Of a stretch of DNA of 25,252 nucleotides, positions 822-24,153 are shown piece by piece (within the stretch, counting starts at the first letter, position 1; every line of letters starts with the position of its first letter). The notes under the pieces are model-generated. The model was given only the letters and a program-made list of their open reading frames with translations. It was not told where the DNA came from and did no database searches. This DNA comes from a virus (lineage: Duplodnaviria; Heunggongvirae; Uroviricota; Caudoviricetes), in IMG/VR virus record IMGVR_UViG_3300037466_003153, positions 1 to 25,252 of that record, one strand, 5' to 3'. The translations under genes were made by a program, and so were the position numbers.

Positions 822-827
822 ATATTA

Positions 828-1803: not shown

Positions 1804-1806
1804 TAT

Positions 1807-2085: not shown

Positions 2086-2086
2086 T

Positions 2087-3193: not shown

Positions 3194-3203
3194 TGCATCC
3201 AAT

Positions 3204-3509
3204 TTAGTGGTGGATACCGAGGAAACCTAATTTAGACATAGTTTCAAGGAAGCCTAAAATGCCAGCAAATAACCATCCTACAAAATGGAATTTCTCTTTT
3301 AGGCTTTCTAATTTTCTTAATCTTGCATCAGATTCTTTTTTATAAATATCTAATGCTTCTTGGGTGAGTTCATTTGCACGTTCTGCAGCTGCAGTACGAC
3401 GCATATGTTCTTTAAGATCGGCTCTAATTTCAGTAAGGCAAATATCTACCTTATCAATTCGCTCATCTTGTTTATCCAACTTCTTCTCTAATTTATCAAA
3501 GCGATCCAT
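3204..3509 (-). CDS. Holin-like protein (coiled coil plus C-terminal TM, XhlA-like architecture)
   Basis: Coiled coil DRFDKLEKKLDKQDERIDKVDICLTEIRADL followed by a single TM FHFVGWLFAGILGFL. It is the last gene of the - strand late arm. Confidence 0.55.
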   Translation of the reverse strand: MDRFDKLEKKLDKQDERIDKVDICLTEIRADLKEHMRRTAAAERANELTQEALDIYKKESDARLRKLESLKEKFHFVGWLFAGILGFLETMSKLGFLGIHH

Positions 3510-3529
3510 ACTACACCACGATTAGTTAA

Positions 3530-5689
3530 TTATTTGCTGTTATCTCCAAAAGCACCACCAAGATGCTTATTTAACATTTCCCTATATTCAGGGTTTTGCT
3601 GAATAGCGAACAATGCTGCATTTCTTCCAACGTTATCTTTTTTCATAACATCAGCTAACTCAGCTGCTAATCTCATCCCTTTAGCACCTTGAGTCATGAC
3701 AGATTTTGCTACTTCTTGAAGCTGTTGTGGAGTTGCTTTAGAAATATCTGTAGCAACTTTATTAACAGCTAAACCAGCAATGTTGCCAGCATTGACTGCA
3801 CCAGGACCAACGTAAGTTGACTTATTGAGAAGTCCTAAACGTTGAGCCTTTTGTGAAAGATTTAATACTTCAGAAGCACGTTCAATAGTAGGTTTAAGAG
3901 CAGCTGCCTTAGCAGGATCAGCTTGTGCTAACAAACGCATCGCTTCATCCATTTTATAGGAAGCATTTTCACCCGCATCTGTATCACGCGCCATTCTCTT
4001 AATGACGTTATTCAACTTCTGTTCGCCTTGAACAGTAAGACGTTGTTGACCTGTAGCAGCATCCTTAATGAAGTCACTACCGTCAATACCTAAAATATCC
4101 ATAGTTTGTTTAGCGGCAGCATATTTGTTGTTTGCTGAAGCTAAGTCAGAACTCGATGTAGAAATTTGATCGCCAATGCCCTTAGCTGATTGCTTAAGCT
4201 GGTTGATAGCTTCATTAGTTTCAAGTTTAGGTGATCCACCTTTTACACCATTTAGGTTATTCAAGGTTTCTTGGATATCTTGAGCTTTTTCAAAATCAAC
4301 ATTGGTTGGATCAATTCCACCTGGACGATATTTAGTGGTTTCTGTCATAACAGGACCACGTTCAGAAGGAGTAAATCCACCTTCTACAGCTGGCTTATCT
4401 AATACAGTTTTAGCAGAAGCTTTTGATTTGAAGTTATTAGCTAAATCACCTTCATCAAGATCGTGTCCCAATACCATTCCATTTTCGTCTTTAATTGGAA
4501 TAGCACGTTCAGATGCTCCAACTTGTTCATCAGAATGTTTCAAGAGAGTAAGGAGCTTATTACCTTGTTCATCTTCAGAAGGTACAATGGTTGTATTTAA
4601 ATTTTGTCCTAAAGCATTGGCTGAAGCTTTAGCCTTAGCAGCTTCTAATTCTAATGCATCGCGAGCTGAAGGAGATGATGGAATTTCTTTACCTGGAGTA
4701 AATTTTGAATACTGAACTGGCGTTTCAACTTCTTTACCAAGAAGGAGATTGTCTAGATAAGACTGAAGTTTATTTACATCCTTAATAGCATCAGGATTGT
4801 CACTCTTTTTGAGTCTATCAATAAGAGTTTTAATATCATCAATTTGATCAGAAACGTCAATCTTTTTACCAGAAGCTTTAATTGCAGCTTTTGCTTTACC
4901 AATATTAGTACCAGCATCTTGTAATGCTTCTCTGCTTCCAAAGCCAACAGACTTAGCAGCATCGCGAGCACCTTGTTCTGCAGCTTCCAAACCTTCTTTA
5001 GTAACAAGATTAACACCTTGCTTACCATATTTATAGGATTTAGAAACATCTTGTGCTAAGTTTGTATCAGCGAGTAAATCACCAAGACTTTTTAGACCAC
5101 TACCAATTCCTTTAGCAGCACCAATACCAGCATGAATAGCACCACCAGCAACTGCACCACCTGCAGCTCCTTCAGCAGCGTCTTTTAATGCTCCACCAAC
5201 ATCACCTTTAGTAATATCAGCTTGGCTATCACCCAAACCTGTTAATGCTCCAGCAGCTGCACCTGTTTTAAGAGCTGCCATAAGTCCTTCAGCACCAGCT
5301 GTTCCGCCACCAGATAATAGAGCAGGAGCTACACCACCAGCAATGTTACCAACTAGGAAAGCATTAGGACTACGTTCTTGAGCTTGTTTGTAAAGATCGC
5401 GAGATTCATCACGGTGCTTACGATAAGCATCCATAAAATTTTCTAAATCTGTTTTACCGGAGAGTGTATCACCAAGAGCTTCAGCTCCACCAGCAAGTTC
5501 ATCTGCAAATCCTAAAGAAGCACCTTGAGCAACACCACGCATTGCATCTTTAAAAGTCTGAGATGCGTCATTATCACCAGTAGCTCCAGCTAATGAACGA
5601 TTTTGAGCCAAATAAGCATCAGGATCAAAACCACCTTTAGGTGCTGCAGCTGCTTTTTGTTTTAGATACTCATCTGGATTGAATGCCAT
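3530..5689 (-). CDS. Putative DNA ejection / internal virion protein (large)
   Basis: 719 aa. N-terminal repeated FNPDEYL/FDPDAYL, AMRGVAQGASLGFADELAG and long Gly/Ala-rich amphipathic stretches, as in podovirus ejection proteins. Lies downstream of the nozzle. Confidence 0.7.
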   Translation of the reverse strand: MAFNPDEYLKQKAAAAPKGGFDPDAYLAQNRSLAGATGDNDASQTFKDAMRGVAQGASLGFADELAGGAEALGDTLSGKTDLENFMDAYRKHRDESRDLYKQAQERSPNAFLVGNIAGGVAPALLSGGGTAGAEGLMAALKTGAAAGALTGLGDSQADITKGDVGGALKDAAEGAAGGAVAGGAIHAGIGAAKGIGSGLKSLGDLLADTNLAQDVSKSYKYGKQGVNLVTKEGLEAAEQGARDAAKSVGFGSREALQDAGTNIGKAKAAIKASGKKIDVSDQIDDIKTLIDRLKKSDNPDAIKDVNKLQSYLDNLLLGKEVETPVQYSKFTPGKEIPSSPSARDALELEAAKAKASANALGQNLNTTIVPSEDEQGNKLLTLLKHSDEQVGASERAIPIKDENGMVLGHDLDEGDLANNFKSKASAKTVLDKPAVEGGFTPSERGPVMTETTKYRPGGIDPTNVDFEKAQDIQETLNNLNGVKGGSPKLETNEAINQLKQSAKGIGDQISTSSSDLASANNKYAAAKQTMDILGIDGSDFIKDAATGQQRLTVQGEQKLNNVIKRMARDTDAGENASYKMDEAMRLLAQADPAKAAALKPTIERASEVLNLSQKAQRLGLLNKSTYVGPGAVNAGNIAGLAVNKVATDISKATPQQLQEVAKSVMTQGAKGMRLAAELADVMKKDNVGRNAALFAIQQNPEYREMLNKHLGGAFGDNSK

Positions 5690-5690
5690 A

Positions 5691-7262
5691 TTATTGTAAC
5701 CCGTGCATTTTTAGAATTTGATCAGATCTCGGATCGCCTTTGTTTGCTTTAGCCCATTCAATAGCTTGTTTATCTTGATCAGAAAGATCACTAGATGATT
5801 GGGAAGCAGTAGGTGATTTACCTTTATTCTTTTCTAAGTCTTTTAACTCATCAATAGACAATCCTGTAGCACCAGAAAGGGTATTATAGAATTCATCAGG
5901 ATGGCGTTTTTTATATTCATTATGAGTAGAATAAGCTTTCTTTAATTGACCATCAAGAATTTGTTGCTGAGCAGTTTTACGTTCTTGAGATGCAGTTTGG
6001 AGAATTGATTTAATGAATTCGCCTTGACCAGCACCAGTAGGTTTACTTTGAATGGATTGAAGAATTGTATTACCAGTCAATGCAGCGTTGCTTGGCATTA
6101 AGTGTTTGAAACGCTCAACGGAAGGATTACCACGGCTAATCAAACGGTCAAGTGCTCCAGCCATTTCTGCATATTGAGCAGGAGGAACTTTATCCAAATT
6201 TGTATAGTTATGTGCAAGAGCTTCAAGAGCTTGCGTATCATTAATAACTTGTTGAGATTTACCTAGAGCGCCACTTCTTGCTCTATTAGGATCAAGGTCT
6301 TCACCCATGATTTTATTATACTTAAGAACTTCAGCGCTATCTCTTTGTGTTTTTTTATCGGCAGCGGCAGCTTTTCTATTCTCAGAAGCTTCTACCATTC
6401 CGAAATAACGTTCGAGAGGACCGTAAATCTTCTCAAGTGAAGCAACAGACATGTTATCGATGTTTCCAAGCTTCATGCCTACTCTATTTGACATTTGTTG
6501 TAGGATATCACGAGACATTTTAGAAACTGCACTGTTAGGATCGTTTTTATCTTTATCGGTAGCTAGTTCATAAACTTGTTTTTGATGATTTAAATCTTGA
6601 TCAGCAGCAGCTCTACGTTGGAGAATATTCTTTTCATCAGCATCTGCTGTTTTAGCAAGAGCATCAGCAAATCCGCTATTATCTTTATAAGCACCTTTTG
6701 ATAGTGCTTCTGCCATTGTTGAAGAAGCTCTAGCCATTAATGATGCAGCATTAATTTGTTTTGCCTTTTCTTGAGCAGCTTTAAGAGCAGCATCTCCCAA
6801 CTCTTTTCCATATGGATCATTTGGATTTGTGGCTGGAGCAGCTTGTGCAGTTTTAATAGCATCTTGAACATCAGAAGGAGTCGATTTTGCAATAGCAGGA
6901 GAACGGTTAGCTAAGAGTGAAGGAGATGGTCCAACATTACCTTGGTCTTGTTGATTTTTAATAGCACCTGTAACTCTAGCAAATAAGCTAGGTCCATTAG
7001 GTCCAAGATTAGGATCTACACTTGATGCAGCAGGATCTGCTCCACCAGTGTAATCGGAAGGATGAGCTGGATTTTTAGGAAAACCAGTGTTATCATAATT
7101 AGCTTGTGCGTCTGCACCTCTAGCTAAAAGATCACTAACAATTTGACCACCAGAACGGTTTAAATCGGCTTGTTGAAGTGCTTGATTAGCGGCATCTGCA
7201 TCTTCTTGAGAAGGTACTTTACCTGCTTGTAATAATGCTGCAAGTTTTGAAAAGTCGGCCAT
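5691..7262 (-). CDS. Putative DNA ejection / internal virion protein
   Basis: 523 aa, Ala/Gln/Asp-rich and predicted helical, with C-terminal DKQAIEWAKANKGDPRSDQIL. Tightly coupled to its neighbours. Confidence 0.65.
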   Translation of the reverse strand: MADFSKLAALLQAGKVPSQEDADAANQALQQADLNRSGGQIVSDLLARGADAQANYDNTGFPKNPAHPSDYTGGADPAASSVDPNLGPNGPSLFARVTGAIKNQQDQGNVGPSPSLLANRSPAIAKSTPSDVQDAIKTAQAAPATNPNDPYGKELGDAALKAAQEKAKQINAASLMARASSTMAEALSKGAYKDNSGFADALAKTADADEKNILQRRAAADQDLNHQKQVYELATDKDKNDPNSAVSKMSRDILQQMSNRVGMKLGNIDNMSVASLEKIYGPLERYFGMVEASENRKAAAADKKTQRDSAEVLKYNKIMGEDLDPNRARSGALGKSQQVINDTQALEALAHNYTNLDKVPPAQYAEMAGALDRLISRGNPSVERFKHLMPSNAALTGNTILQSIQSKPTGAGQGEFIKSILQTASQERKTAQQQILDGQLKKAYSTHNEYKKRHPDEFYNTLSGATGLSIDELKDLEKNKGKSPTASQSSSDLSDQDKQAIEWAKANKGDPRSDQILKMHGLQ

Positions 7263-8578
7263 TATTGTTTACTTCCTTCCAACTTACGTAAACGATGATG
7301 TAAGTTAGCAGTAGCCGCCATCATTGCAGCAACACCTTTCTTAACATCAATTTGCTTACCTTCTGGAGTTTCGGATACCATGTTTTTACCAACGTGGGAT
7401 TTTTCAACGTCTTGAGCAATAACTCCAGTGTTAATACCTGGACTATGATTTGGATCTTTATATTCATAGTTTGCAGAATGAAGCTTATCTAAGAAATCTT
7501 CGATAGCATTTGTTCCATCGGTAATATTTTTCTTTGCATTCTTATCAGAAAGAATAGCTCCATAATTTGGAGAAGTTGTTTTTTCTGGCATTGGTCCCAT
7601 AAAACCTGCCGGTTTTGCTGATTCTACACCTGTTCCAGCACCACCAAACATACCACCAGCAAATGCAGCTTGAGCACCTTGGTCAACCGCGCTACCAATT
7701 CCAGACCACATACCACGAGTATTTGCAGCTTGTTGGCCATAGTAGCCAGCTAGTGTATTATCTTGTGCAGCAATACCTTTAGCTTTAGTCATTTGGTTAT
7801 TAAATTGTTGTTGATATAAACCTTTATTATACATTTCTTGCTGATTAGCCAAACCAACATTTTGGTTAGCAATATTTTGTTTATTAGCAAGATTTGAAGC
7901 TTGAGCATTATTTCTAGCAGCAACGTTACCAGACATTACTTGTTGTCTATTTGCAGCATTGAAACGATCGATTGCGTCCTGAGCTTGCGCGGCATTTGCA
8001 GCTTCGCCATAGTCTTGGCTACGAATTTGTCCACCAAGATTTCCAGCATTGGTTGTGGCTTCTAATGCACGCTGAGTTGCTTGTGCAGCAAGATTATTAC
8101 CTTGAGTGTTTGCACTATCCATTGCTTGTTGAGAAGATGCGAGTTGTGCAGCAAGTTCAGCACCTGATCCTGACATACCACGTTGAGCCATGTTTTGTAG
8201 GATAGAAGCATTACGAGCTTCGGCATCTCTATCAACACCACGGTTAATTTGAGTAATAGCTGCTCTATCGGATGCAGTAAGACCTTCACTACCTTGTTGT
8301 ACAAGCTTTTGTAGAGCCTGCATTTGAGTATCTTTTAAACGTGGGTCTGTACTAATATTCTTAAGATTTGTATCACCTTGGGAAATGGCATCTACCATCT
8401 CAGGTGTAAGTTCACCTTGACTCTCAAGTTTTTCTAAGGCAATACGTTGTTCATCAATGGTTGGAACATTTACGTCTTGAATAGCTTTAAGAGCATTTTG
8501 ATAAGCTGCTTTTTGTGCATCCTCATCACCATTGTCAAAAAGATTACCGGCGATACCGCCAATTAATGAACCTAACAT
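7262..8578 (-). CDS. Putative ejection/pilot protein with a C-terminal peptidase S74 (intramolecular chaperone) domain
   Basis: Gly-rich N-terminus MLGSLIGGIAG and a Q/A/N-rich helical body. The C-terminus carries LSDKNAKKNI ... YEYK ... GVIAQDVE ... NLHHRLRKLE, the S74 signature. Confidence 0.75.
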   Translation of the reverse strand: MLGSLIGGIAGNLFDNGDEDAQKAAYQNALKAIQDVNVPTIDEQRIALEKLESQGELTPEMVDAISQGDTNLKNISTDPRLKDTQMQALQKLVQQGSEGLTASDRAAITQINRGVDRDAEARNASILQNMAQRGMSGSGAELAAQLASSQQAMDSANTQGNNLAAQATQRALEATTNAGNLGGQIRSQDYGEAANAAQAQDAIDRFNAANRQQVMSGNVAARNNAQASNLANKQNIANQNVGLANQQEMYNKGLYQQQFNNQMTKAKGIAAQDNTLAGYYGQQAANTRGMWSGIGSAVDQGAQAAFAGGMFGGAGTGVESAKPAGFMGPMPEKTTSPNYGAILSDKNAKKNITDGTNAIEDFLDKLHSANYEYKDPNHSPGINTGVIAQDVEKSHVGKNMVSETPEGKQIDVKKGVAAMMAATANLHHRLRKLEGSKQ

Positions 8579-8581
8579 CGT

Positions 8582-10129
8582 TTATTCCCCAATTTTGATG
8601 CCTTTACCGACACCGTATAGATTTTGTAGAGCATTTAATTTTGCCAAGTTTTGTGCTGCAGTATCACTATTCATACCGCTTCCATTAAACAAATCAAATT
8701 TATAAAGATCTGGATTATAAAGATAATTTGTAAGTGGATTTGCCTGACTTTCATATGCTGCTTTTTGTGTTGCAACAGCTTGATTGTAAGCATCCGTATC
8801 AAAGTGTTTGAAGTTATCAAAAGCTCCAGCTTGTGATGGATCAGTTAAAAGTGTTGGATCAACATTAGCTAATTTTGATAGTGCTTGATAACGTGCATAA
8901 TCATCAGCGGAAGCAACGTTTTGTTTAGTTGCATCCAAATTACGTAAATAAGCATTTGTATCAACACCATAATTTTCAATGTCTCTAACACCAGGAACAT
9001 TTTGTAATGTTTTATATGCATTAGAAAATTCATCATTAAGTTGGTCCATAGAGAGCTGACCGCCAGCATTTGCAACATCTTTTAAGAACTTATCTTGAAA
9101 TGGTTGATTCCAAGCAGCTAACGCAGCTTGTGCTGAAGGTGAACCAGCATAAGCTTGACCATCATTCTTATAAACAGAGTCAGTATAAAGTCTTCCTGTA
9201 TCTGATGCTTGTAAACCTAATAATTTGGCATCATCAGCAGAAATTGTTCCATTTTTTAATTCACTAGCAAGACGTTGATTGAGTGCATTACCTTGATCAA
9301 CTTTAGCTTGAAGTGCTGCATCTTGGTCAGAGAAAGCTTTATTTAAAGCGCCTTGTGTTTGTTGCTTTGTATCAGCAGCTTCATTTTGATAGAGCTGAGC
9401 TTTTGCTTGAGCTTGGGTATTTGCTTGATTAACTGTATTTTGTGCTTGATTTCCAAGTACGCGAGCATTGTTAAGTTGTTTAACTTGATTTGGATCGTTT
9501 TGTAAGAATACGTTATCAAGTTTTTGTTGTCCTGCAGAATAGGTAGGACGATTGAACATTTGACGCAATGAATTAAAACGTCCTTGTTCTGTTCCAAGCT
9601 GAGAAGTTGTATCATTAATGTTCTGAGCTTGGACTTGAAGTTTTGGTGTGTCTTGAAGCTGAGTTGGTCCTTGATAAGAGGCATCTCTCATTTGATTGAA
9701 CTTGTTAACATCTTCTGTATTATTTACAGCAGTCGTTGCATTATTGATGGTGTTGTTAACAAAGTTTGCATCGTATTGACGACGATTTTGATCAGCTTGT
9801 GTATTAAAATTTTGTTGTGCAGTTTGAACGTTATTATTCAAATTCTGATTTTGTTGTTGAACGTTATTAACAATTTTACCACCAAGACCGGTGCCTTGAT
9901 TGAAGTTTTTGTTAGCATTCAAATAATTGGTAATGTTAGTGAAACGTCCAGAACTGGTGCCAGTAGGATTACCAGATTGTGTAGTTGAACTTCCAGAAGA
10001 CGCACCAATAGGTGCAGTGCTGTTACCCGCGTTCATAGTTGTGCCAGCAGAAACAGGTTGAGTAGAACCACTTTGATCTTGGTTCTGCTGATCTTTGTCT
10101 TTATCTGATGGATTATATACTACAGCCAC
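8582..10129 (-). CDS. Asn/Gln-rich virion protein, putative ejection protein
   Basis: 515 aa; GTG start with SD AGGAGA at 10135-10140; low-complexity N/Q/T composition; located between the tail genes and the other ejection genes. Confidence 0.65.
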   Translation of the reverse strand: MAVVYNPSDKDKDQQNQDQSGSTQPVSAGTTMNAGNSTAPIGASSGSSTTQSGNPTGTSSGRFTNITNYLNANKNFNQGTGLGGKIVNNVQQQNQNLNNNVQTAQQNFNTQADQNRRQYDANFVNNTINNATTAVNNTEDVNKFNQMRDASYQGPTQLQDTPKLQVQAQNINDTTSQLGTEQGRFNSLRQMFNRPTYSAGQQKLDNVFLQNDPNQVKQLNNARVLGNQAQNTVNQANTQAQAKAQLYQNEAADTKQQTQGALNKAFSDQDAALQAKVDQGNALNQRLASELKNGTISADDAKLLGLQASDTGRLYTDSVYKNDGQAYAGSPSAQAALAAWNQPFQDKFLKDVANAGGQLSMDQLNDEFSNAYKTLQNVPGVRDIENYGVDTNAYLRNLDATKQNVASADDYARYQALSKLANVDPTLLTDPSQAGAFDNFKHFDTDAYNQAVATQKAAYESQANPLTNYLYNPDLYKFDLFNGSGMNSDTAAQNLAKLNALQNLYGVGKGIKIGE

Positions 10130-10146
10130 ACTATTCTCCTATTATA

Positions 10147-10155
10147 AGTTGTTAA
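10147..10155 (-). promoter_or_regulatory. TTAACAACT motif, copy 6 (candidate late promoter)
   Basis: TTAACAACT-TATAAT-AGGAGA upstream of the 8582-10129 gene. The TAA stop of the upstream gene lies inside the motif. Confidence 0.65.
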
Positions 10156-10565
10156 CCTTTTGAGAGTACCGTCAATCTATATTTATTATTTGCTGGTAAT
10201 CCTGTAATATGGTTAACCGTAATAACTTGGTTATTCTGATCGAACGTAATAAAAGGCGCTCCAGTAGGATAAGTACTTGGATTTGTTAAATTAACTGCTC
10301 TTTCAACTGTAATGCCTCTAATTTTGCCAGTAAACGAAACTTTGAATTGAGTCGTGTTAATAGGAATTCCACTAGCATTAACGGTCACTTCAATGTCTTT
10401 GTATTCCATTTTCAAATTATCATCGACTGTGAAGTTCTTATTAAATGCGTTAATAACTTCTTCAGCAAAGATGTTAATAGACCCACCGATAGCATCAATA
10501 AGTTCTTGATCTTCGGCTTTGAAATTCTCTTTTACGATGCGCTTAAAGCTTTGTAATTTGGCCAT
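10152..10565 (-). CDS. Small tail-associated structural protein
   Basis: 137 aa, with a helical N-terminus and a beta-rich C-terminus; immediately follows the nozzle gene. Confidence 0.6.
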   Translation of the reverse strand: MAKLQSFKRIVKENFKAEDQELIDAIGGSINIFAEEVINAFNKNFTVDDNLKMEYKDIEVTVNASGIPINTTQFKVSFTGKIRGITVERAVNLTNPSTYPTGAPFITFDQNNQVITVNHITGLPANNKYRLTVLSKG

Positions 10566-10570
10566 AAACG

Positions 10571-13500
10571 TTACCTATAAGCTCTTGTGCTGGTAGGGTT
10601 ACTGGTTAGAGAAAGACCGTATATAGCGAAAGTCTCGCGTGCTGTACTGTGTTCGAAACGGCAATGGATGTATCTACAACGTTGTTTATTTCTAGGAATA
10701 TAAGTACGGATAGGAATGGAGTTACCTTCACCACCGTAGTTATTAGCTCCATATAAAGCATCGGCATAGCCGAAACTTCCATTACCACTTCCATTGAAGT
10801 TAATAACATCGAAACCTGGCTCTAAGTCACTAGCGTAAGCTACAGATGCTTCAGAGAAGTTGTTCTTATCGAAGATAATAGTAGCTTCTGACACCTGTTT
10901 CATCATAGATGGGTCACCAAATGTTTGAGGTGCCCATTGGACGATAGTATCGATGTGTTTATAAATAGTGAGTGGGCCTGGAACAAAAGGATACGCAAAC
11001 AAAGTTGTAACTTTATTTGTTGAAGTATCTACATCAGCAATCACAACTTCATAACTAGAAGTTCCTGTTGAAGTTAGATAGTTGAAGAATGATACTCCAG
11101 TGTCGGCATTAAGTTTATTAACAATGACATTGAAAGCACTTTGTTGATCGATTAGTGAAGTTGAATATCCTGAAATGGAAGAAAGATAATCACTATCGGC
11201 AACACCAGTGTCATTATCAAGTTTTGTTGCAAGATCATTTAATTTAGTTCTTAAATCATTACCTGCCATTGCTTGAAGAGTTGTAAAATAATCACTATCA
11301 TTAACACCAATGTCATTATCAAGTTTAATAAGTAATCTATTAAACTGAGCAATAGTGAGATATTGAGTTTGGATAATTACGTCACGAGCTTCAACGTTAT
11401 TGACAGTTGGGAAGCTAATGATTGTATCGTTAATACTATCTGGACCAATAGTTACACTAAATTCCCTATCAGCATAGTCTGTACGATCGAAAGATTTTCT
11501 TTCTTGTTCGATATAATTAACATCATTTGCTCCAAGATACATTTTATCATCAGCTGTATTAATTACTGCACAACTTACAGCTTTATCGATGTTTGTCCAA
11601 GAGTTGGTGAAAGTATTATAACGCAAACATTGAGTAGCTTTTGTGTCAGAAGGATTTGAAACAGTCCATAAATAATAACTACGGTCTGATTCATATGAAC
11701 ATCCAAAAGACGCAGTTTTGTAATTTGGATAAGTTGGCGTGTTAAGTTTCAATAAATCACCTTCGATTGGACGTGAAATAATTGAAACACCGGTGTCTGA
11801 AACAGTTGCAACACCTTGGTCAGATAGAAGATAGATTTGGTTGTTCAAAACAGCAGCAGAGTCTGGAGCTGTTAGAATTGTGGAGCTATCGAACAAGTTT
11901 AATACGAATGGAGCAACATCACCAGATACACGATAGATACCTTCTTCTTTGAAGACGAATAAGCTATCACGCAAAGCAACAATCCTTAGAATCTTTTTAT
12001 CACGAGGACCAACATCAAAGTAATTAAGTAGAGGAACTGCTTCAGGTTGATCTTTTTTTGAATAATAAATACGATTTGCAACTACTTCATTATCTGAAAT
12101 AACTGTGCTTCCAGAAGTAGGAAGAGTTGGTGAAAATTCTTGTCCTGTAGTTGTATTATTTACGGTAAAATGGAATGCATTATCAGCAAGCGACTTAGAT
12201 TCGAATAAGATAAGACCTGGGACATCAGTAGGTCCAGAAAGATAATAAGCATACACAATACCATTTGGATCAAGATTGATGACATGTACTAGAGATCTTG
12301 CAGTTTCATCAACTTGCTGAGCAGGAGTATCAAGTGTAGAAATAAGAACTTTTCTATTTACATCATCTTCTACGGTAGAAAAAGTGTAAGTTCTTGTTGT
12401 AGTTCCATTTGAAATGCTAAATGTGGAAGTATCGGCAACAAGATCAACTACAGATAACAAAGAAAGTTGTTTTCTTTGCTTTGTTTTGGTGTTGGCATAC
12501 ATTAAACAGTTTTTGAATAATGCAATATCTTTAGCAAAAGGAGGAACCTCATTAGCCTGAGCAATACCTTCACCGCTATTAGGATTGGTATAAAGATTTG
12601 CACCCCTAAAGCTATCTGGAGTAATATCTTGAACAGTGATAGATCCTGCGGTAATTTCTGATGAGGTAGGATTGTCTTCAAAAACAAGTCCCATTTCATC
12701 ACCTGGATCAAGATCAGATAAAGTACTTGCATCTGTACTTGTAGAAAGAGCAGTACGATATATTTGATAGAAGTGAGCAGTTGTAATATTTGAAGGAATT
12801 GTAAAACTTAAATTAACAGTAGCACTTTGTGTAGAACCGCTATTATTAAAAATTGTAGCGCTAGGTACAATTCCAGAAGGTTCAACTTGTAAATCCTCAA
12901 CAATAGCATCATAATATTCTTGCATACTGGTGAGTTCGCCAGAAGTTGGAACTTGTGAAAGTGCAACAGGTTGAGTAATGTTAGTATATTTTTTACGTGT
13001 AACAACACCTGCTGTATCTGCTGTAGGACCAGCATATGGGGAAGTAAAAGTACCAGCAAATGTAACGCTATCGTTTGTTAAGGTTGTAGTCGTAACCGAT
13101 AAAATTGTAAAAGTTCCATTTAGTTCAGTATCGCCAAGTCCAGAGATACTAATTTTATCACCAACTTGAAGGAAAGTAGAAACATTTTGATTGAATTGAA
13201 TTTTTGCACTACTAGTTGTCGGTTTGAAACGATTTGCTGTATTAATTGCACCTTCTGTAATAACTGTATCGTTATCAAGTTTTGTTGTTAATGCAATTAA
13301 GCTAGTTCTTAATGTGCTTGCTGGACTATTTACTGATACCGAAAGAGAAGAGTGATAATTTCCATCACTAATACCACCTGGAGTATTGACAGTATCAAGT
13401 AGGGTAAGTAAATTATTAAAATCTGTAATGAGGAGATCAGTGAGTGGATTTACAATAACAGCACGTTCACTAGGATATCCAAGGATAAGATTGTTATTTG

Positions 13501-15425: not shown

Positions 15426-15446
15426 TTTAATTTTACTCCTATAATA

Positions 15447-15455
15447 AGTTGTTAA
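15447..15455 (-). promoter_or_regulatory. TTAACAACT motif, copy 5 (candidate late promoter)
   Basis: TTAACAACT-TATTAT-AGGAG upstream of 15425 and just downstream of a hairpin. Confidence 0.65.
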
Positions 15456-15521: not shown

Positions 15522-17453
15522 TTAGTTGCTGACCTTGGTGATTGAGAAAAACGAAGCGGTGTCAGTACTTGATGGGACTCCATCTGTATGTGCTCTAACA
15601 ACGTCGCCACTACGCAAGATAAGAGTTTTATTGAACTCGTTAAACGCGTTTACAGCTCCGAATTGACCTGATTGAGTCATGCCCCTATAACCAGCAGCAT
15701 AAGTTAAGGAGTCAATAGCAGTTGTTGGTGCTGTAGTACTTACCGAGATGCCGTGACGACCGGTTGTTCCGCTGCACCTGTCAACGTAAGAAATCGCATA
15801 AACGCCATCCTCATTGATTGTAAAAGAGCCGCCGAGAGTCGCGCTATCTGTGTATGTGATGGCCGTTCCGGTGTTCGCTTGTACAGTGGTAAATCTGCGA
15901 ATCTTTGTGTTCGTTGAACCGTAACCGTTAGGAGTATCTACATAGACCTCGCTTCTCGGCGCTTGAACCCCGACAGCCAAGGCGTTTTCGGAAACAGTTA
16001 CATCGAAATATGCGGAGCTTTGTCCACTAACTATGTCGTTTACACCGGCCTGATGGCCAGTAGTTCCGCTATAAAAACGGAATGGAGAAACGACAAGAAT
16101 GCCTGTGGTCGGGTCATAACTTGTGACGTAACCATAGTCTAAATTACCCGAGCCGCCTGTCTTTGGTGAAGCATCAAAATAGCCAGTTCTGCCACTCGTT
16201 CCGTACCAATCAACTCTTACGTTTTTATTTTTCCCTACAAAGATTTCATATCGAGTTGGGCTATTTGCCGTATCAGCCGATGAATACGCATTTCCTGCGT
16301 AAATCTTGATACCGTCCGATGCGGTCGGTGCGGTTGTTGGAGCGCCGCTTGTTTCGGTGAAAGTGTTCGCGTTCGCGTTTCTCAGGTAACTTCTATACTG
16401 CCCGAGCGCGGTCGGCGCAGTACCAGTGACCCTGCTCCCATTCGCCAAGTAGCTTGAGATGCGGAAGGTCGATGAGTTGGCCATGGTGACATTGGATGAC
16501 CAGCCTGCGATTGGCACCTTTGCCCACAACGAGATTGCCGACGATGAGCTAAAAATAGAAGTTGAAGTTTGTTCTGTTAAGTTATTAAGACTCGAACCGT
16601 TACCCACGCCGCCGAAACTCAGATTGCTCGTCTGTCCATTCGCAACGAAAACGTAAGTTGCATTGACGTTTCCAGAAGTCACTGTAACCGCATCGGTAGT
16701 ATGACCAACAATTGAGCCAGATGAGCTAAGTTTAGTTGTATCGAACAAATAAGGTGATGGAATACTTACGCGAGCAACTGATGCGGCGACCGAACCAGGC
16801 GTAAATGTTCCCATGATTTCCATGGTGTCGCCAACTTGTCGCCATTGGAAAAACACATTGGTTGGAGTTCCAAAGTTCGTAAACGTTGGGGTATATTGTT
16901 GCCAACCGCTCCCGGCCATTCCTTGAATTGCTTGTTGAGCAGAAACGCTAACATTATCTATTTTAATATTCGCAGTACTAGATACAGATTGATTGATTAT
17001 TAGTCTATAGGATGTGCTGTTAGAATTTGTAGGAAAAGTAGCTAAAAATGTTCCTTGTGAAACACTTGGAATTTGATAACCATAAGGTTGAATCATTTGG
17101 CTATTGGTTACATCATATACATAAACAGTATAGTCACCCGTAACCATAGTTCCAGAAGCGATAGCATAATCAAAGCTAATAGCTAATGTCTTCCCTTTAT
17201 CAGCAGCATCAATACTAAAATCGAAAGAAACGCCATTACCTAAAGCACCAGCTGTAATTAATCCAGACTTAGCTCCACGTAATGGAGAAGAAGTGGAAGC
17301 AGTTAATGTTAGAGTTGGACTACCACCTGTTCCATCTACAGGAGTTGCAGCACCATCTGCATACGTAGCATATCCAGTAGTGTCTACATCAAATGTACTA
17401 TTAGTTATGTAATTTTTAGCAGCGCTAGTAATTGTTAGATTAGTTAATGACAT
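15522..17453 (-). CDS. Tail fibre / receptor-binding protein 2 (C1q/BclA-like C-terminal domain)
   Basis: 643 aa, S/T/G-rich. KNYITNSTFD carbohydrate-binding-like jelly-roll, a WQQYTP beta module and C-terminal GSFTINEDGVYAISY...LILRSGDVVRAH...FSITKV. Paralogous to residues ~590-930 of the 1205-aa fibre. Confidence 0.75.
   Translation of the reverse strand: MSLTNLTITSAAKNYITNSTFDVDTTGYATYADGAATPVDGTGGSPTLTLTASTSSPLRGAKSGLITAGALGNGVSFDFSIDAADKGKTLAISFDYAIASGTMVTGDYTVYVYDVTNSQMIQPYGYQIPSVSQGTFLATFPTNSNSTSYRLIINQSVSSTANIKIDNVSVSAQQAIQGMAGSGWQQYTPTFTNFGTPTNVFFQWRQVGDTMEIMGTFTPGSVAASVARVSIPSPYLFDTTKLSSSGSIVGHTTDAVTVTSGNVNATYVFVANGQTSNLSFGGVGNGSSLNNLTEQTSTSIFSSSSAISLWAKVPIAGWSSNVTMANSSTFRISSYLANGSRVTGTAPTALGQYRSYLRNANANTFTETSGAPTTAPTASDGIKIYAGNAYSSADTANSPTRYEIFVGKNKNVRVDWYGTSGRTGYFDASPKTGGSGNLDYGYVTSYDPTTGILVVSPFRFYSGTTGHQAGVNDIVSGQSSAYFDVTVSENALAVGVQAPRSEVYVDTPNGYGSTNTKIRRFTTVQANTGTAITYTDSATLGGSFTINEDGVYAISYVDRCSGTTGRHGISVSTTAPTTAIDSLTYAAGYRGMTQSGQFGAVNAFNEFNKTLILRSGDVVRAHTDGVPSSTDTASFFSITKVSN
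16492..16514. repeat. 23-nt direct repeat, copy A (identical to 18351-18373)
   Basis: TTGGATGACCAGCCTGCGATTGG on the + strand; encodes PIAGWSSN in both fibre genes. Confidence 0.9.
16829..16847. repeat. 19-nt direct repeat, copy A (identical to 18673-18691)
   Basis: CGCCAACTTGTCGCCATTG on the + strand; encodes QWRQVG in both fibre genes. Confidence 0.9.
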
Positions 17454-17464
17454 AAATTATTCCT

Positions 17465-20400
17465 TTAGTTTCCGACTCGGTTGATGCAGAAATAGTTCGT
17501 GACACCTGCACCAAGTGCGACGCTAACTGATGCAACACCTTTGATAGCGATAGTGTCACCAGCGTTGCACGATATAAGACCGTTTACTGGGTAGCTGACG
17601 GCGGCGCTCGCAGCTCCAGGCGTTTCTTTTGCGTAAGTCAAAACAGCCACGCCATTTTGATAAACAGAAACATTTCGACTGACGACGCTCGTATTAGAGT
17701 CTGTGTAACAAAATGCAGCCGAAACATTATAAGTTCCGCTCGTCGGAATAGTGTAAACGCCGGTAGACGAATTGTAGGCGTTATGGGAGTCCTTTACCTT
17801 AGTTGAATATGCGATTTGAGTGAGAGAGGTTCCAACGGTTGTGCTGCTTCCGTTATATATAGCGACGATACTTTCACTCGCCGCGACGGTCGCAGGGCCT
17901 GACAAGCGCTCGAATGTGACCCAGTTGTCAGTAGCAGCGGCATCGAAGGTAATCGTTGAGCTTGTACTATTGCTGACATAAATCGCGAGCGTGTCGCCAG
18001 CTTTGCAATCAACAAGCGCCGAACCGTTAGCCATGATAGCCGAAGACGTTGAGCGAGTCTGGGCCTGTCCAAGCTGAGAATGTAATGCTCCGTTTTTGAA
18101 AAGATAGGCATAACACGCCTGCGATGCCGTTGTCCCGCTAGGAGTGAAAGTCAAAGCAGTTGAAACTCGATACTTACCGGTGACAGGTACCACATAAGCA
18201 TTAGAACTAGTTGAAAAAGCCGCGTGAGTGTCGAAGTCAACTGCGTTGAATGGAATAATTGATTGACCACTAGAACCAATAGTACCGGCTGCATTGTAAG
18301 TCGCACGTGCTGCACAGACGCGAGTATCACTATCTGCGCTCATCACTGTGTTGGATGACCAGCCTGCGATTGGTACCGAGAAGTTAATAGTTATAGTTTC
18401 GCCCGAACCAGCAATAGACGAGCCATTTGCCTTAGAAAGTGCTGAAACTGCAGAGCTTCCAAGGATACCAGGGTCAGAAAATGTAACGTAGCCTACGCTT
18501 GGCTCAATGAGAACAAGACCGCCGTGATTACCGGATGCGGCAGAGCGAGCGTAAATACCGCGATGAGAAAGCGTTGGAAGCGAAGAGTCGGATGTAACAC
18601 TCGGAAGCGAAATGCGCGCCTCGCTTGCTACCGTAGTACCCGTAACAATTGTTCCTTGGACTTCAACGGAACCGCCAACTTGTCGCCATTGAAGATTAGT
18701 AGTAGCGTTGCCCCATCCCGCTGTACTTGCTGGTGTATAAGATTTCCAATCGCTAATAGGAGGTCCATAAGCCAAGCTTTGTGGGCCAACATAGAAATCA
18801 TCTAGTAATAGTGTAACTGCTCCGCTTGTTGCATTAATATTTACCAACGCAATTTGAAACTGAGTCATGTTAGATGGAGTTTGGAATGTACCTTGAGCAA
18901 TTCCAACACCAGTGCTTTGGACTAAGTTGTAACAGCCAGTAGGTTGAATCCATGCTGAGTTTGTTACATCATAAATATATACAGCCCATGTATTGGATGA
19001 AGTTCCAGACATATTAACTGTTCCAGAAGCTACTTTATAAGCAAATTTGAAAGAGAGAACTTTTGCTTGATCTTCAATATCAATAGAAGTTGCTTGGCTA
19101 ACAAGCATATCACCGGCTGTTGTTGCAGCAGATGAAGCCATTTGCATTGAATAAGTTCCAGCTAGTTTTCCAGAAGAAACAGCACTAAGAGCTAATGTTC
19201 CAGCAGCAGAAGTCCAGCTACCTGCAGTTTGATTTGGAACTAAGCTAGAAAGAGTTGTATGATATAAACTCCAGCCAGTAGTTGCATTATTCTCAAAATT
19301 TCCATATGTAATGTAATTTTTTGGAGAAGGAGATGTATTAACTGTGATAGTTCCGAAATACCAAGCTTGGATATTAAGATTTGCAGCTAGAGCCTGATTT
19401 AGAGTTACTGTAGAGCCTGAAATAGTATAATCAGCAGAAGATCCTTGAGATAAAATTTTACCATCAACTGATAAGAAAAAAGCCGCAGCTGTAGTAACTG
19501 AAAATGGAAGTGTAATACTTGTTTGGCCAGCTGTAGAGCTTACAGGACCATAAGTATTAGAAATGGCTTGTCCTCCACCACTTGATGAAGGAGTGTTCCA
19601 CTTTAAACCAGAAGTTTGAGAACTATCTGCGGTTAGAACTTGTCCATCTGATCCAACGGGAAAACGAGCATTTCCTGTATCGTAAACGTATAAGTCGCCT
19701 TTTGTAGTAAGAGGTGATGCAGTTCCTGCAGCTCCCCAAGTACCATCAGCTTTAAGAACGCGTCCAGCAGCAGCATCTCCAGAAGCAGGAGCAGGAACTA
19801 ATCCTTTTGTTCCGCCTGATCCAGAGTCACCAACAAAAGCATTTAATTCGGCAGTGAGTTGTGTTGCAGTTAAGTCGGAAGGAGCAGCAGAAGATCCTGT
19901 GTTATTACCTTTGAAGGTATGAGCTGCCATATTAGCCATTTTGCTATTAGAAACAGCTCCAGCAGCAATGGTTGTTGACATTCCTGTAGAAGTAACATCA
20001 CCCGTTAAGTTTCCTGTAATACTTGCAGCAGTACCAGAAACATTTCCTGTAATATTTGCGGTAATTGTACCAGCTGAAAAGTTACCTGAAGCATCACGTT
20101 TAACAATTGTTGAAGAGGTGTTAGCATTTGTTGCTGCATTTGCGGCTTGTTCAGCGGTGTGAATATTTGCAGCAGAAGAACCGCCAACAGATGCAACTGT
20201 AGTTGACATTCCGGTAGAGGTTACATCGCCTGTTAAATTTCCAGTGATAGAAGCAGCACTGCCAGATACGTTACCAGTTAAATTTGCAGTGATAGTTCCA
20301 GCTGAGAAATTTCCAGAGGCATCGCGTTTAACGATAGCAGATGGAGTATTTACGTTTGTAGCAGAGAGAGTTCCTACTGTAGCTGTATGAATTTCAGAAG

Positions 20401-21082
20401 CAGTAGATGCTCCTACAAAATTAACAGTTACTGAAGCATTACCAGGACCAGTGGCACTTACGTCACCTGTGAGTCCAGTGATTGCACCGCCTGATAATGA
20501 ATTGATTTGATTTTGGATATTAGAAGTTGCACCAGAAAGATAACCAAGTTCTGTAGAAGTAACTGTTGAAGCTGAGACAACTCCTGAAGCATCAGAAACT
20601 AGAGCTTTTGAAGCAGTAAGAGCAGCAAGCTTACTATAAGCAATAGCAGCATTACTTGCGATATCTGCGTTAACAATAGATCCAGACAAGGCTAATTTTG
20701 AATAAGCAATAGCTGCAGAGCTAGCAATGTCAGAATCAACAACATTACCAGTAAGAGCTAATTTAGAATAAGCAATAGCAGCAGAAGCATTAATATCACT
20801 ATCAACGATGTTCCCAGTAAGAGCAAGTTTGCTATAAGCAATTGCAGCTCCTGCTTTAATACAAGAGTCAACAATGTTGGAAAGAGTGTTTACGTCAGCG
20901 CTAATTGTTTTATTAGTAAGTGTTGCTGTATGAGCTTCTGAAACTAATGGAGAAGCATCTGTACCATTATGGTAATTAAGCTTACCTCCAGAAACATCTA
21001 AATCGCCTGCTTCTGAAGCGGAAGACGAAGCTTCCTGTTTAATGTTTAAACCCTTGCGAAAACGTGTAAAATTATTAGCCAT
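17465..21082 (-). CDS. Long tail fibre protein 1 with shaft repeats and two C1q-like C-terminal domains
   Basis: 1205 aa. AAIAYSKL repeats, IVKRDASGNFSAGTIT repeats, the LTTKGDL...GQVLTADS motif, an Ig-like SVDGKIL...DYTISGSTVTL domain, a KNYITYGNFE jelly-roll, and two F/Y-x-VP-x-TG-x-Y ... C-x-AGD-x-I C1q-like domains. Confidence 0.85.
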   Translation of the reverse strand: MANNFTRFRKGLNIKQEASSSASEAGDLDVSGGKLNYHNGTDASPLVSEAHTATLTNKTISADVNTLSNIVDSCIKAGAAIAYSKLALTGNIVDSDINASAAIAYSKLALTGNVVDSDIASSAAIAYSKLALSGSIVNADIASNAAIAYSKLAALTASKALVSDASGVVSASTVTSTELGYLSGATSNIQNQINSLSGGAITGLTGDVSATGPGNASVTVNFVGASTASEIHTATVGTLSATNVNTPSAIVKRDASGNFSAGTITANLTGNVSGSAASITGNLTGDVTSTGMSTTVASVGGSSAANIHTAEQAANAATNANTSSTIVKRDASGNFSAGTITANITGNVSGTAASITGNLTGDVTSTGMSTTIAAGAVSNSKMANMAAHTFKGNNTGSSAAPSDLTATQLTAELNAFVGDSGSGGTKGLVPAPASGDAAAGRVLKADGTWGAAGTASPLTTKGDLYVYDTGNARFPVGSDGQVLTADSSQTSGLKWNTPSSSGGGQAISNTYGPVSSTAGQTSITLPFSVTTAAAFFLSVDGKILSQGSSADYTISGSTVTLNQALAANLNIQAWYFGTITVNTSPSPKNYITYGNFENNATTGWSLYHTTLSSLVPNQTAGSWTSAAGTLALSAVSSGKLAGTYSMQMASSAATTAGDMLVSQATSIDIEDQAKVLSFKFAYKVASGTVNMSGTSSNTWAVYIYDVTNSAWIQPTGCYNLVQSTGVGIAQGTFQTPSNMTQFQIALVNINATSGAVTLLLDDFYVGPQSLAYGPPISDWKSYTPASTAGWGNATTNLQWRQVGGSVEVQGTIVTGTTVASEARISLPSVTSDSSLPTLSHRGIYARSAASGNHGGLVLIEPSVGYVTFSDPGILGSSAVSALSKANGSSIAGSGETITINFSVPIAGWSSNTVMSADSDTRVCAARATYNAAGTIGSSGQSIIPFNAVDFDTHAAFSTSSNAYVVPVTGKYRVSTALTFTPSGTTASQACYAYLFKNGALHSQLGQAQTRSTSSAIMANGSALVDCKAGDTLAIYVSNSTSSTITFDAAATDNWVTFERLSGPATVAASESIVAIYNGSSTTVGTSLTQIAYSTKVKDSHNAYNSSTGVYTIPTSGTYNVSAAFCYTDSNTSVVSRNVSVYQNGVAVLTYAKETPGAASAAVSYPVNGLISCNAGDTIAIKGVASVSVALGAGVTNYFCINRVGN
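18351..18373. repeat. 23-nt direct repeat, copy B (identical to 16492-16514)
   Basis: TTGGATGACCAGCCTGCGATTGG. Confidence 0.9.
18673..18691. repeat. 19-nt direct repeat, copy B (identical to 16829-16847)
   Basis: CGCCAACTTGTCGCCATTG. Confidence 0.9.
19970..20370 (-). repeat. Tandem 228-nt (76-aa) coding duplication in the fibre shaft
   Basis: Two copies of ATNxNTxSxIVKRDASGNFSAGTITANxTGNVSGxAASITGNLTGDVTSTGMSTT. Matching DNA segments are offset by 228 nt (for example ~19986 and ~20214) and differ mostly at synonymous sites. Boundaries are approximate. Confidence 0.85.
20628..20850 (-). repeat. Four 66-nt (22-aa) coding repeats AAIAYSKLALxGxIVxxDI
   Basis: Visible in the translation; the DNA cores (ATAAGCAAT) are spaced 66 nt apart. 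Confidence 0.85.
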
Positions 21083-21569: not shown

Positions 21570-21589
21570 AGTGAATCACTCCTATAAGA

Positions 21590-21598
21590 AGTTGTTAA
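21590..21598 (-). promoter_or_regulatory. TTAACAACT motif, copy 4 (candidate late promoter)
   Basis: TTAACAACT-TCTTAT-AGGAG upstream of 21569. Confidence 0.65.
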
Positions 21599-21602
21599 TT
21601 TC

Positions 21603-22920: not shown

Positions 22921-24153
22921 TTAAGCAGAGTTTACGATACCGCTGATAAGAACGTTCTTACCAGGAGCTGAACAGAACAATGCTTGATCGGTGTAACAAC
23001 GGAGTTCGTAACCAGCGTTTGATTCCAACTCACGGAAGAATTCACCTTCCATTGCAGGACGCTTAAAGGTTACGTCGGTAGAACCAACGCGAGAGAACTC
23101 GTCCATTGCTAGAACATAGGCATAACCTTCTTTGCAATAGATGGTAGGTTCAATGCTGATGGTTCCGCTTTGTCCGTAGAACTTGATAGCTTTGTGACCA
23201 GCTTCAACTTGTGCTGAGCTGTAGGTGCTATCAATTTTACGAAGAGCAGTTTGTTCAACGAGCAAGTCGTTCCAAGTTGCAGGAGAAACGAGAACTGTTA
23301 CGTCACCGTCAAGTCCTTTAGCAACTGCTAGAGCAAGAGCGCGTTCAACTTTAGCGAGAGAAAGAGATGCTGATCCAGCTCCGTAAGTGTTACCTTTCCA
23401 GAGTGAATAAGAAGCAGCGGAAATATTGAAAAGTGTGCCAGTGTTAGTGATGATTTTGTGGATACCAGCAAACTCATTACCATTTGCACCTTTGTGGAAA
23501 ATAACGTCGGTAGCGACAACACCAGTAGCATCAGCTACAACGATTTGCTTGTTAGTAAGGCTAACAGAAGAAACAGTTGTAGAAACGCGAAGTGTAACGC
23601 CAGTAGCGTCATAAATATCGATTGGCATGTTTTCAGCGCCAGCCCAAATACCGCTTGCCCATTCAGCAGCTGCGATAGTAAGAGTAGTGCCAGCTACAGA
23701 ACCGACAGTTCCATAACCCATTTGACCATAGAGCATTTCGATTTCGAGCTTCTTGGTAATAGAACGAAGCATGTTAGCAACAAGAAACTTTGTTGCATCC
23801 ATGAATGCTTTATTTCCACCTTGAACAGCGCGAGAAGCAGAGACATAACCGAGAACTGAACGAAGTACGACTGGATTGCCGCGAACTTGAGCGTCCTTGA
23901 TTTGACCAGCAACTGGAGCATTCAATGCGAAAGCATCATCATCAGAAGCCGCGAAAGTAACACCGTGTTCATGTCCGAGAATAACTGGTTGGTGATACAA
24001 GTTACCTGGTTGTTTGTCTTTAGACATGAAAGAAATCATTTTATAGAGCTTAACGCCATCTGGAATTAGATTTTGAAGCTTATCTGCATAAGTTTCTTTA
24101 AAAAGGCCGTTAAGTGTACCTGCGAAATTGTTTGAACCTGCCATTGCTGACAT
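22921..24153 (-). CDS. Major capsid protein (HK97-fold expected)
   Basis: 410 aa between the scaffold gene and a strong terminator; strong SD AGGAGA 8 nt before the ATG; codon usage skewed to highly-expressed-type codons; N-terminal LNGLFKETYADKLQNLIP and E-loop-like YHQPVILGHEHGVTF. Confidence 0.8.
   Translation of the reverse strand: MSAMAGSNNFAGTLNGLFKETYADKLQNLIPDGVKLYKMISFMSKDKQPGNLYHQPVILGHEHGVTFAASDDDAFALNAPVAGQIKDAQVRGNPVVLRSVLGYVSASRAVQGGNKAFMDATKFLVANMLRSITKKLEIEMLYGQMGYGTVGSVAGTTLTIAAAEWASGIWAGAENMPIDIYDATGVTLRVSTTVSSVSLTNKQIVVADATGVVATDVIFHKGANGNEFAGIHKIITNTGTLFNISAASYSLWKGNTYGAGSASLSLAKVERALALAVAKGLDGDVTVLVSPATWNDLLVEQTALRKIDSTYSSAQVEAGHKAIKFYGQSGTISIEPTIYCKEGYAYVLAMDEFSRVGSTDVTFKRPAMEGEFFRELESNAGYELRCYTDQALFCSAPGKNVLISGIVNSA

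Follow-up and report, generated by a model that had tools for sequence, protein, structure and literature searches.

Short exact repeats in two tandem phage fibre genes as candidate micro gene-conversion patches at module joints

What do two perfectly identical stretches of DNA record when they are shared by a pair of otherwise diverged phage fibre genes: a device for shuffling receptor-binding tips, or ordinary recombination between neighbours? The question is raised by a stretch of 25,252 nucleotides (nt) (the window), which forms the first 25 kb of a complete 89,252-bp IMG/VR virus record (IMGVR_UViG_3300037466_003153; 36.9% GC). On its minus strand lie fibre genes A and B. They are receptor-binding fibre genes of an uncultured tailed phage, and their distal halves are chains of autonomous beta-sandwich domains. 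The two genes share a 19-nt and a 23-nt repeat (the 19-mer and the 23-mer; Table 1), both exact and direct, just as a preliminary description of the window had reported. That description took the repeats for selectively maintained crossover points. We favour, at a probability of roughly 0.55, a reading in which they would be patches of micro gene conversion, placed at the conserved joints between modules of a dual-fibre locus.

Among the direct repeats of the whole genome, only a 127-nt terminal repeat exceeds these two in length. The 23-mer comprises the codons for P-I-A-G-W-S-S and the first two bases of the Asn codon that follows, and synonymous differences delimit it on both sides (Val GTA/GTG and Asn AAC/AAT). 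Each repeat has the same codon phase in A and B; a crossover at either would therefore stay in frame, as had been argued earlier for the 23-mer. The interval between the repeats (299 nt in A, 314 nt in B) retains only 27% amino acid (aa) and 37% nt identity, so the earlier picture of a diverged module of about 300 nt holds for this interior, but the homology extends beyond it: it spans about 340 aa (A 588-927, B 13-337; 34% identity) and comprises two domains, D1 and D2. With codons drawn according to the usage of each gene, two copies encoding the same residues would match at every codon with a probability of 0.004 (19-mer) or 0.0003 (23-mer). We also ran 20,000 simulations in which both proteins and their alignment were fixed and synonymous codons were redrawn: the longest identical run reached at least 23 nt with P = 0.0005 and the second longest at least 19 nt with P = 0.0002, typical values being 11 and 10 nt. 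Because of these simulation results, the identity of the repeats goes beyond what amino acid conservation and codon bias alone produce and is not due to chance.

A three-way codon alignment of A, B, and L047 (the locus encoding P0197, whose D2 is the nearest relative of A's D2) points to the process that may have produced the repeats. At the 19-mer (motif M1), A and B both read CAA TGG CGA CAA GTT GGC, whereas L047 reads CAA TGG CGT CGT AAC GGA (QWRRNG); on both sides of this motif the A protein is L047-like (GNATTNL before, GGSVEV after). Since B-type sequence thus sits in an otherwise L047-like D2, the 19-mer appears to be a B-type island inside the L047-type D2 of A, which is the signature of a conversion patch and not of a cassette boundary. 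The patch equals the paralogue and differs from the nearest lineage, as expected of ectopic conversion, with an outgroup (L047) that is 66 to 68% identical at the protein level. At the 23-mer (motif M2), A is likewise identical to B and departs from L047, for example, in a serine codon that reads TCA instead of AGT. The peptide RQVG occurs in both window copies of M1 but in none of 21 other loci and none of the 17 nearest D2 relatives of either gene, KQIG being a partial exception; the family consensus is RRVG, and among the first 124 family proteins WRQVG is found elsewhere only in P0048. For the Val codon of the 19-mer the likely donor was B and the recipient A, since the lineage of B has V as its consensus and the closest relative of A has N. 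As for the 23-mer, it may represent either another conversion patch or a junction relic. Two separate events would be needed, because the interior is too diverged (37% nt identity) for heteroduplex formation, and this hints that the two genes interact repeatedly at the motifs.

The patches are private to this genome. In IMG/VR and in the JGI metagenomes (241 million records for the latter), the 23-mer had no match; the 19-mer had none in IMG/VR and nine in the JGI metagenomes, all attributable to chance and none with fibre homology. A check that the preliminary description had called for, whether the repeats flank varied tips in other phages, thus gave a negative result: no other fibre gene in these collections carries either one. 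The three D2 copies in the tandem fibre genes of the L047 phage (G006) differ from one another at 7 to 10 of 18 nt in M1 and at the protein level in M2, and the probable paralogues P0044 and P0051 (57% identical) also differ in M2. A second D2 copy was found in none of the five near-complete relatives searched.

We found a gene (L041; genome positions 73382-73783) for an Erf-family protein, with 88.3 bits to PF04404 against a cut-off of 25 (E = 3e-26) and a predicted annealing activity. The complete genome had no match to RecT, reverse transcriptase (PF00078), or resolvase/invertase (PF00239); control genomes matched for PF00239, and tyrosine recombinases were not searched. On this point the preliminary description, which involved neither an invertase nor a diversity-generating retroelement (DGR), agrees with the gene content. 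Very short ectopic non-crossover recombination between the tandem paralogues would have left the 19- and 23-nt identical patches. Erf-type single-strand annealing, or template switching at microhomologies, plausibly promoted it, because the motifs are the sole places where A and B retain sufficient microhomology for pairing. In-frame deletions of 1859 or 1844 nt could now arise between the repeats, and these would join the gene A shaft to tip B or to the D2 and tip of B. The single-fibre architecture of such a product exists naturally in the related locus L003, though its D1 and D2 are B-like. Conversion mechanism, direction, the part played by Erf, and deletion potential are all what we infer from these comparisons.

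Several observations weigh against conversion. Tracts of at most 19 to 23 nt would be unusually short, and two independent events are required. The 23-mer is nearly the string of family majority codons, and L025, an unrelated phage, differs from it at only 1 of 21 nt, so the identity at M2 owes something to site-specific codon preference. In the 20 codons past the 19-mer, six of eight identical residues share their codon while the non-identical residues differ heavily, a pattern unlike that of a single clean tract. The evidence for a direction comes from protein comparisons with relatives at 46 to 68% identity, and the data comprise one assembled genome.

Exchange on a larger scale appears to have shaped the DNA around the patches. 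The nearest relatives of the D1, D2, and tip segments disagree with one another. D1 of A is closest to P0134, P0129, and P0125 (68 to 78% identity), but the D2 of these proteins is at most 33% identical to that of A or undetectable; P0197, nearest in D2 (66 to 68%), is only 33% identical to A in D1 and 29% in the tip. Similarly, D1 of B is closest to P0006 (74%), whose D2 is 35% identical to that of B. These comparisons, made at 45 to 78% identity, also locate breakpoints. P0134 is 77% identical to A over aa 359-782, after which identity drops to 41%, 33%, 20%, and 7% through D2; a fall to below 40% places the breakpoint at aa 782-797; the block of high identity between A and P0197/L047 runs from about aa 774 to M2 (about aa 911), and identity falls past M2. 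GC content at third codon positions (GC3) changes abruptly in both genes (Table 1), and in gene A the change-point coincides with the P0134 breakpoint. Among other phages, L006 and L029 have change-points 18 and 21 codons past M2, and L014 has one where D2 starts. GC content around the gene in the L047 phage is 51%, which fits the kind of donor expected for A's GC-rich D2.

Taken together, the discordant segment relatives, the GC3 jumps, and the P0134 and P0197 breakpoints argue that A and B both carry apparently foreign, GC-rich cassettes of D2 plus tip on a resident, AT-rich D1. The left junctions of these cassettes are at the D1/D2 linker, 11 to 24 codons upstream of the 19-mer and not within it. 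Placement of the GC3 switch at the 19-mer itself was considered and is excluded by the change-point analysis, the structure, and P0134, all of which put it at the linker. Based on these comparisons, the borders of D2 would be exchange joints between phages. When tip classes were mapped on a D2 tree, we counted 10 tip-class changes against a mean of 14 after shuffling, and strongly supported branches force two; by itself, the tree is weak evidence for shuffling. Natural proteins that combine an A-like D2 with a B-type tip lie near A on this tree. We also searched three near-identical locus pairs (L015/L016, L017/L018, and L025/L026) for recent recombinants, but each pair represents the same phage (at least 99.98% identity) and was uninformative.

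D2 is widespread: a profile search (E ≤ 1e-3) found it in 13,053 representative clusters, while a Pfam scan of two proteins gave no model matching D2. Many proteins carry it in tandem, with two to seven copies (two in the 616-aa P0044, up to five to seven in P0244 and P0246). Its most conserved peptides are W(R/K)RVGD at M1 and (V/I)P(I/V)xGWSSN at M2; 23 loci and the majority of the first 124 family proteins keep WRxVG and PIxGWSSN, with interiors and tips that vary. The claim that different tips follow the 23-mer proved to have a wider basis than the two genes of the window, as M2 is followed by A-type C1q tips, B-type tips, a C-type tip, further D2 copies, or several other kinds of module; the tip class of A (TVMSxDxDTRV...) follows M2 in 12 other loci. 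By this distribution PIxGWSSN appears to be a family-wide module joint.

Does the joint also conserve its nucleotides? When 40 conserved columns were ranked over 21 other phages by how far codon identity exceeds gene-wide codon usage, the four highest (ratios of 1.8 to 1.9) all belonged to M2; ratios for other invariant columns are near 1, and M1 shows no excess. The expectation that both anchors would exceed equally conserved blocks in synonymous identity is therefore borne out for M2 and fails for M1. The longest exact matches of the distal part of gene A with other phages, to L025 over 21 nt and to L009 over 20 nt, fall at M2; five other phages have exact matches of 14 to 21 nt there, and blastn between otherwise unalignable loci often returns the M2 region alone. 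Strict conservation of synonymous bases in the anchors, however, is not what the relatives show: they differ on average at 6.2 of 21 nt in M2, where none of 231 pairs is identical, and at 5.9 of 18 nt in M1.

How do these results bear on the idea that the anchors are selectively maintained crossover points, used without invertase or DGR to shuffle tips within the genome or in co-infection? Parts of it stand. The repeats appear to be products of recombination and are not due to chance; M2 is apparently a joint throughout the family, with many kinds of module behind it, its excess of synonymous conservation has a hypergeometric P of about 1.6e-4, and it is a hot spot of exact matches between phages. 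Moreover, two separate patches without later substitution suggest repeated interaction, the phage encodes Erf, and proteins joining an A-like D2 to a B-type tip exist in nature. But maintenance itself seems unlikely to us, because the k-mers are private to this genome, M1 lacks family-wide nt conservation, the 19-mer lies in the interior of the exchanged D2 block and not at its edge, multi-fibre relatives (G006; P0044/P0051) have no identical anchors, and each of five near-complete relatives has just one D2. Recombining two direct repeats also means an irreversible loss of the DNA between them and not a switch, and selection for evolvability is hard to maintain. A little more doubtful again is the elaboration in which each burst would contain a reproducible minority of Erf-made, in-frame deletion chimeras, co-infections would swap tips at the same points, and micro-conversion would keep the repeats in register; if true, this would be a host-range bet-hedging device needing neither a recombinase nor a retroelement.

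Other origins of the repeats need no maintained anchors. The repeats could be residual islands in recent tandem duplicates, in which modules from other phages later replaced all but the crossover motifs, and the different nearest relatives of D1, D2, and tips, the compositionally foreign D2-plus-tip parts of both genes, and the position of M2 at the right-hand end of the L047-like block would suit such a history. We nevertheless regard it as quite improbable: the L047-like block of A reaches 24 codons upstream of M1, so M1 should have been replaced too; the GC3 switch of B is at the linker and not at M1; and many replacements would have to fit within a time too short for one synonymous change. 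Coincidence, through conserved motifs and a site-specific codon preference (e.g., for translational accuracy) that arrives at the same codons, draws on the facts that the 23-mer has the family majority codon at six of seven positions, that family site frequencies raise the probability of agreement to about 0.003 for M2 and 0.01 for M1, and that 52% of identical residues overall share their codon already. It is distinctly improbable all the same, since the joint probability is still about 1e-4 to 1e-6, TCC is used in both genes although it is the rarest serine codon in each (5 of 63 and 4 of 60), CGA is rare in B, the derived Q of RQVG common to A and B is not a codon effect, and the three D2 copies of G006 show no such identity. 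A nucleotide-level function in mRNA or DNA (M1:M2 RNA pairing, a translational pause at a domain border, or a protein-binding site) would account for the family-wide synonymous constraint at M2, but we hold it to be very improbable, as the strings are absent from all relatives. Of the candidate functions, M1:M2 RNA pairing was rejected as no better than shuffled controls: 15% of shuffles equalled the duplex energy of -12.5 kcal/mol, and the summed M1-M2 pairing probability was 2.07 in B and 0.00 in A. Finally, the record was assembled from a metagenome and has a 127-nt terminal overlap, so two strain variants of one fibre gene might have been joined in tandem or made chimeric at shared k-mers. 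Such an artefact is extremely improbable. B has its own ribosome-binding site (AAGGA) and a start codon 11 nt past the stop of A, independent assemblies also contain B-like genes that stand alone and arrays of several fibre genes, and the D1 domains of A and B are about 35% identical and hence not strain variants. Repeats of 19 and 23 nt are, in addition, below the usual final k-mer sizes of assemblers.

The domain limits used above derive from an AlphaFold model of B (mean predicted local distance difference test [pLDDT] score, 84.6), in which four domains are parted by low-confidence linkers. D2 of B, modelled alone (pLDDT 76), has its best fold matches, of moderate strength, in the Det7 tailspike C-terminal domain (Z score 9.9) and Noumeavirus NMV_189 (Z 9.5); the fibre heads of phages, reovirus, and adenovirus come next (Z 5 to 7). 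M1 lies in an early strand, about 25 residues inside D2, and M2 lies at the end of the last D2 strand, adjoining the linker. The predicted structure thus contradicts the earlier view of the 19-mer as a module border. The second tip domain of B (T2) matches the gC1q domain of C1ql1 (9lkk_H; Z 15.0, root-mean-square deviation [rmsd] 1.9 Å over 119 residues) and the C1q domain of Caprin-2 (Z 14.7), and gene A matches Pfam C1q (PF00386) in two stretches, with 31.9 bits against a cut-off of 23.7. Both genes encode fibre proteins with C1q/TNF-like heads, a statement that relies on Pfam for A and on the predicted model for B. Tip B is 53 to 59% identical to the tips of L003, L004, L029, and P0009.

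Table 1. Positions of the repeats, composition change-points, predicted domains, and genes in the window (GC3, GC content at third codon positions; lnL, log-likelihood; CBM, carbohydrate-binding module)
Feature	Position	Strand	Remarks
19-mer, copy A (motif M1, QWRQVG, aa 798-803)	18673..18691	-	identical to B copy; 7 of last 12 nt differ from L047 (QWRRNG)
19-mer, copy B (M1, aa 203-208)	16829..16847	-	in strand aa 198-207, inside D2
23-mer, copy A (motif M2, PIAGWSS+AA, aa 904-911)	18351..18373	-	21/21 nt as in B; 7/21 nt differ from L047
23-mer, copy B (M2, aa 314-321)	16492..16514	-	end of last D2 strand (307-315) and start of D2/tip linker
GC3 change-point support, gene A	18623..18802	-	best at about aa 787 (about nt 18724), support aa 761-820; 0.17 -> 0.42, delta lnL 43.5
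GC3 change-point support, gene B	16917..16934	-	about aa 174-179, the D1/D2 linker; 0.14 -> 0.45, delta lnL 29.4
D1 of A (aa 588-766)	18785..19321	-	CBM-like jelly roll by homology to D1 of B; low GC3
D2 of A (aa 767-912)	18347..18784	-	predicted fibre-head-like beta sandwich; GC3-rich; nearest relative P0197/L047
Tip A (aa 913-1205)	17468..18346	-	two C1q-like domains (Pfam)
D1 of B (aa 11-173)	16935..17423	-	predicted CBM16/CBM22/CBM4-like jelly roll; Z 15.7, rmsd 2.5 Å, 141 residues to 2zew_A
D2 of B (aa 179-320)	16494..16919	-	limits from low-pLDDT linkers 174-178 and 321-326
Tip B (aa 327-643)	15525..16475	-	T1 (327-490) plus predicted C1q/TNF-like T2 (498-643)
Major capsid protein	22921-24153	-	PHROG major head protein
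Fibre gene A (1205 aa)	21082..17465	-	N-terminal attachment part with 22-aa repeats, shaft, D1, D2, tandem C1q-like tip
Fibre gene B (643 aa)	17453..15522	-	begins directly at D1, then D2 and two-domain tip (T1 plus C1q/TNF-like T2)

The structural genes on the minus strand run from the major capsid protein through a 157-aa gene, fibre gene A, and fibre gene B to more tail genes. The 127-nt terminal direct repeat is exact (window 1-127, genome 89126-89252) and is probably an overlap from the assembly of a circular or circularly permuted genome. A conserved promoter-like motif (core AAGTTGTTAA as read on the plus strand) is present at window positions 21583-21601 and 15439-15455 and at genome positions 25491-25512, 31555-31576, and 34253; the two window copies flank the group formed by the 157-aa gene, A, and B. 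Because no copy lies between A and B, the motif suggests that these two genes would be co-transcribed. In the proximal half of gene A, we noted four 66-nt (22-aa) tandem repeats (20624-20848; AAIAYSKLxLTGxxVxxDI) and, at 19949-20362, a duplication spaced by 228 nt, with 186-nt copies of 73% identity. The N terminus of A is homologous to the single fibre of L003 and 77% identical to P0134; in the latter the 22-aa repeat is more numerous, and the length of the shaft therefore appears to change with repeat number.

A megablast search of the locus against cultured phages gave no match, and tblastn gave only distant ones, the best being MW202898 (31 to 38%). Syntenic relatives are L003 (85.5 kb), L028 (87.6 kb), and L004 (79.8 kb), with capsid proteins 60 to 65% identical in L003 and L028. 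The fibre of L003 is a single fused protein of 955 aa with an A-like N terminus and a B-like D1-D2-tip part, while in L028 (8343-11947) a 552-aa protein is accompanied by a separate 648-aa B-like D1-D2-tip protein, with overlapping reading frames. By analogy with this split fibre, we suggest that B-like D1-D2-tip proteins can dock non-covalently; stand-alone homologues of gene B, of 640 to 670 aa, also occur. L003 has a second fibre-like gene as well (9925-11553; 542 aa), with one stretch 63% identical to aa 133-195 of gene A, and, at 11215-11535, a second copy of its homologue of the 157-aa gene located ahead of the fibre genes. Small proteins of the 157-aa type may be fibre adaptors or chaperones. 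Locus L051 (G006:C1:61000-72500), in a related phage of 83.9 kb, contains an array of four fibre genes (350-9127) encoding a 1817-aa A-type fibre, a 181-aa D2-only protein, a fibre of 742 aa (D1-D2-C1q), and a 149-aa protein that consists of one C1q-like head as in B-type tips; this phage thus has small genes for individual fibre domains.

Fibre tips decide which bacteria a phage can infect, and how tips move matters for host-range prediction and phage engineering. This locus is a clean natural example, from an uncultured phage family, of a string of autonomous domains whose borders would act as exchange joints. At PIxGWSSN, synonymous-site conservation is measurable across phages of 34 to 51% GC, and two micro-conversion patches, if that is what the repeats are, would mean that tandem fibre genes physically interact at the motifs. 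Because D2 is so widespread (more than 13,000 clusters) and went unmatched by Pfam in both proteins scanned, its conserved end motifs could help to mark where fibre genes divide into modules. The locus as a whole is best read as ordinary mosaic fibre evolution, with no dedicated tip-switching device.

Among known systems, the arrangement of A and B resembles that of multi-receptor-binding-protein or branched-fibre phages, such as the T5-like phage DT57C (LtfA/LtfB) and CBA120 with its tailspikes: behind a long fibre gene comes a shorter gene without a virion-attachment part. By analogy, protein B probably docks on A or on an adaptor, giving two specificities. These phages have no sequence homology to A or B. 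The D1 of B matches a CBM-like domain within CBA120 TSP4 (Z 15.0). With ectopic gene conversion (concerted evolution), the locus shares patches of perfect identity in diverged paralogues, a derived state that is nearly private, and a polarity against the outgroup L047; it differs in that the tracts are at most 19 to 23 nt, are confined to motifs under purifying selection, and lie in a virulent-type phage genome with its own annealing protein. Mechanistic work on ectopic gene conversion comes mostly from cellular genomes.

A DGR of the BPP-1 Mtd type likewise concentrates host-range variation in the fibre tip. The A/B locus is not one, because the genome has no reverse transcriptase; it also has no template/variable repeat pair (its only long repeats are the two anchors, the terminal repeat, and the promoter-like motifs), and the tips are C1q-like instead of having the C-type-lectin fold. 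The Mu G/Gin and P1 C/Cin systems and the PinQ-type fibre inversions, as outlined in PMC12529663, are like the present locus in setting alternative C-terminal tips side by side behind a constant fibre part. They use inverted repeats and a serine invertase; since the repeats here are direct, on the same strand, and would yield a deletion, and since no resolvase was found, the locus is not an invertase switch.

The closest parallel is with the T-even phages, whose distal tail-fibre and adhesin genes (gp37/gp38) recombine between conserved motifs (Tetart 1996, 1998, as cited in Trojet et al. 2011, PMC3157838). In that account, as in A and B, short conserved motifs flank variable receptor-binding segments; in A and B, breakpoints also appear to fall at those borders. 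A and B have no sequence or Pfam relation to gp37 or gp38; Pfam and PHROGs searches returned only C1q, a weak DUF5907, and phrog_15750. The modules exchanged here would be whole folded domains (CBM-like, head-like, and C1q-like) in place of loops between glycine-rich motifs. The exact repeats belong to a single genome, in tandem paralogues, and are known from sequence and not from experimental recombinants. The principle is the one known from T-even phages; the present locus extends the idea and does not change it.

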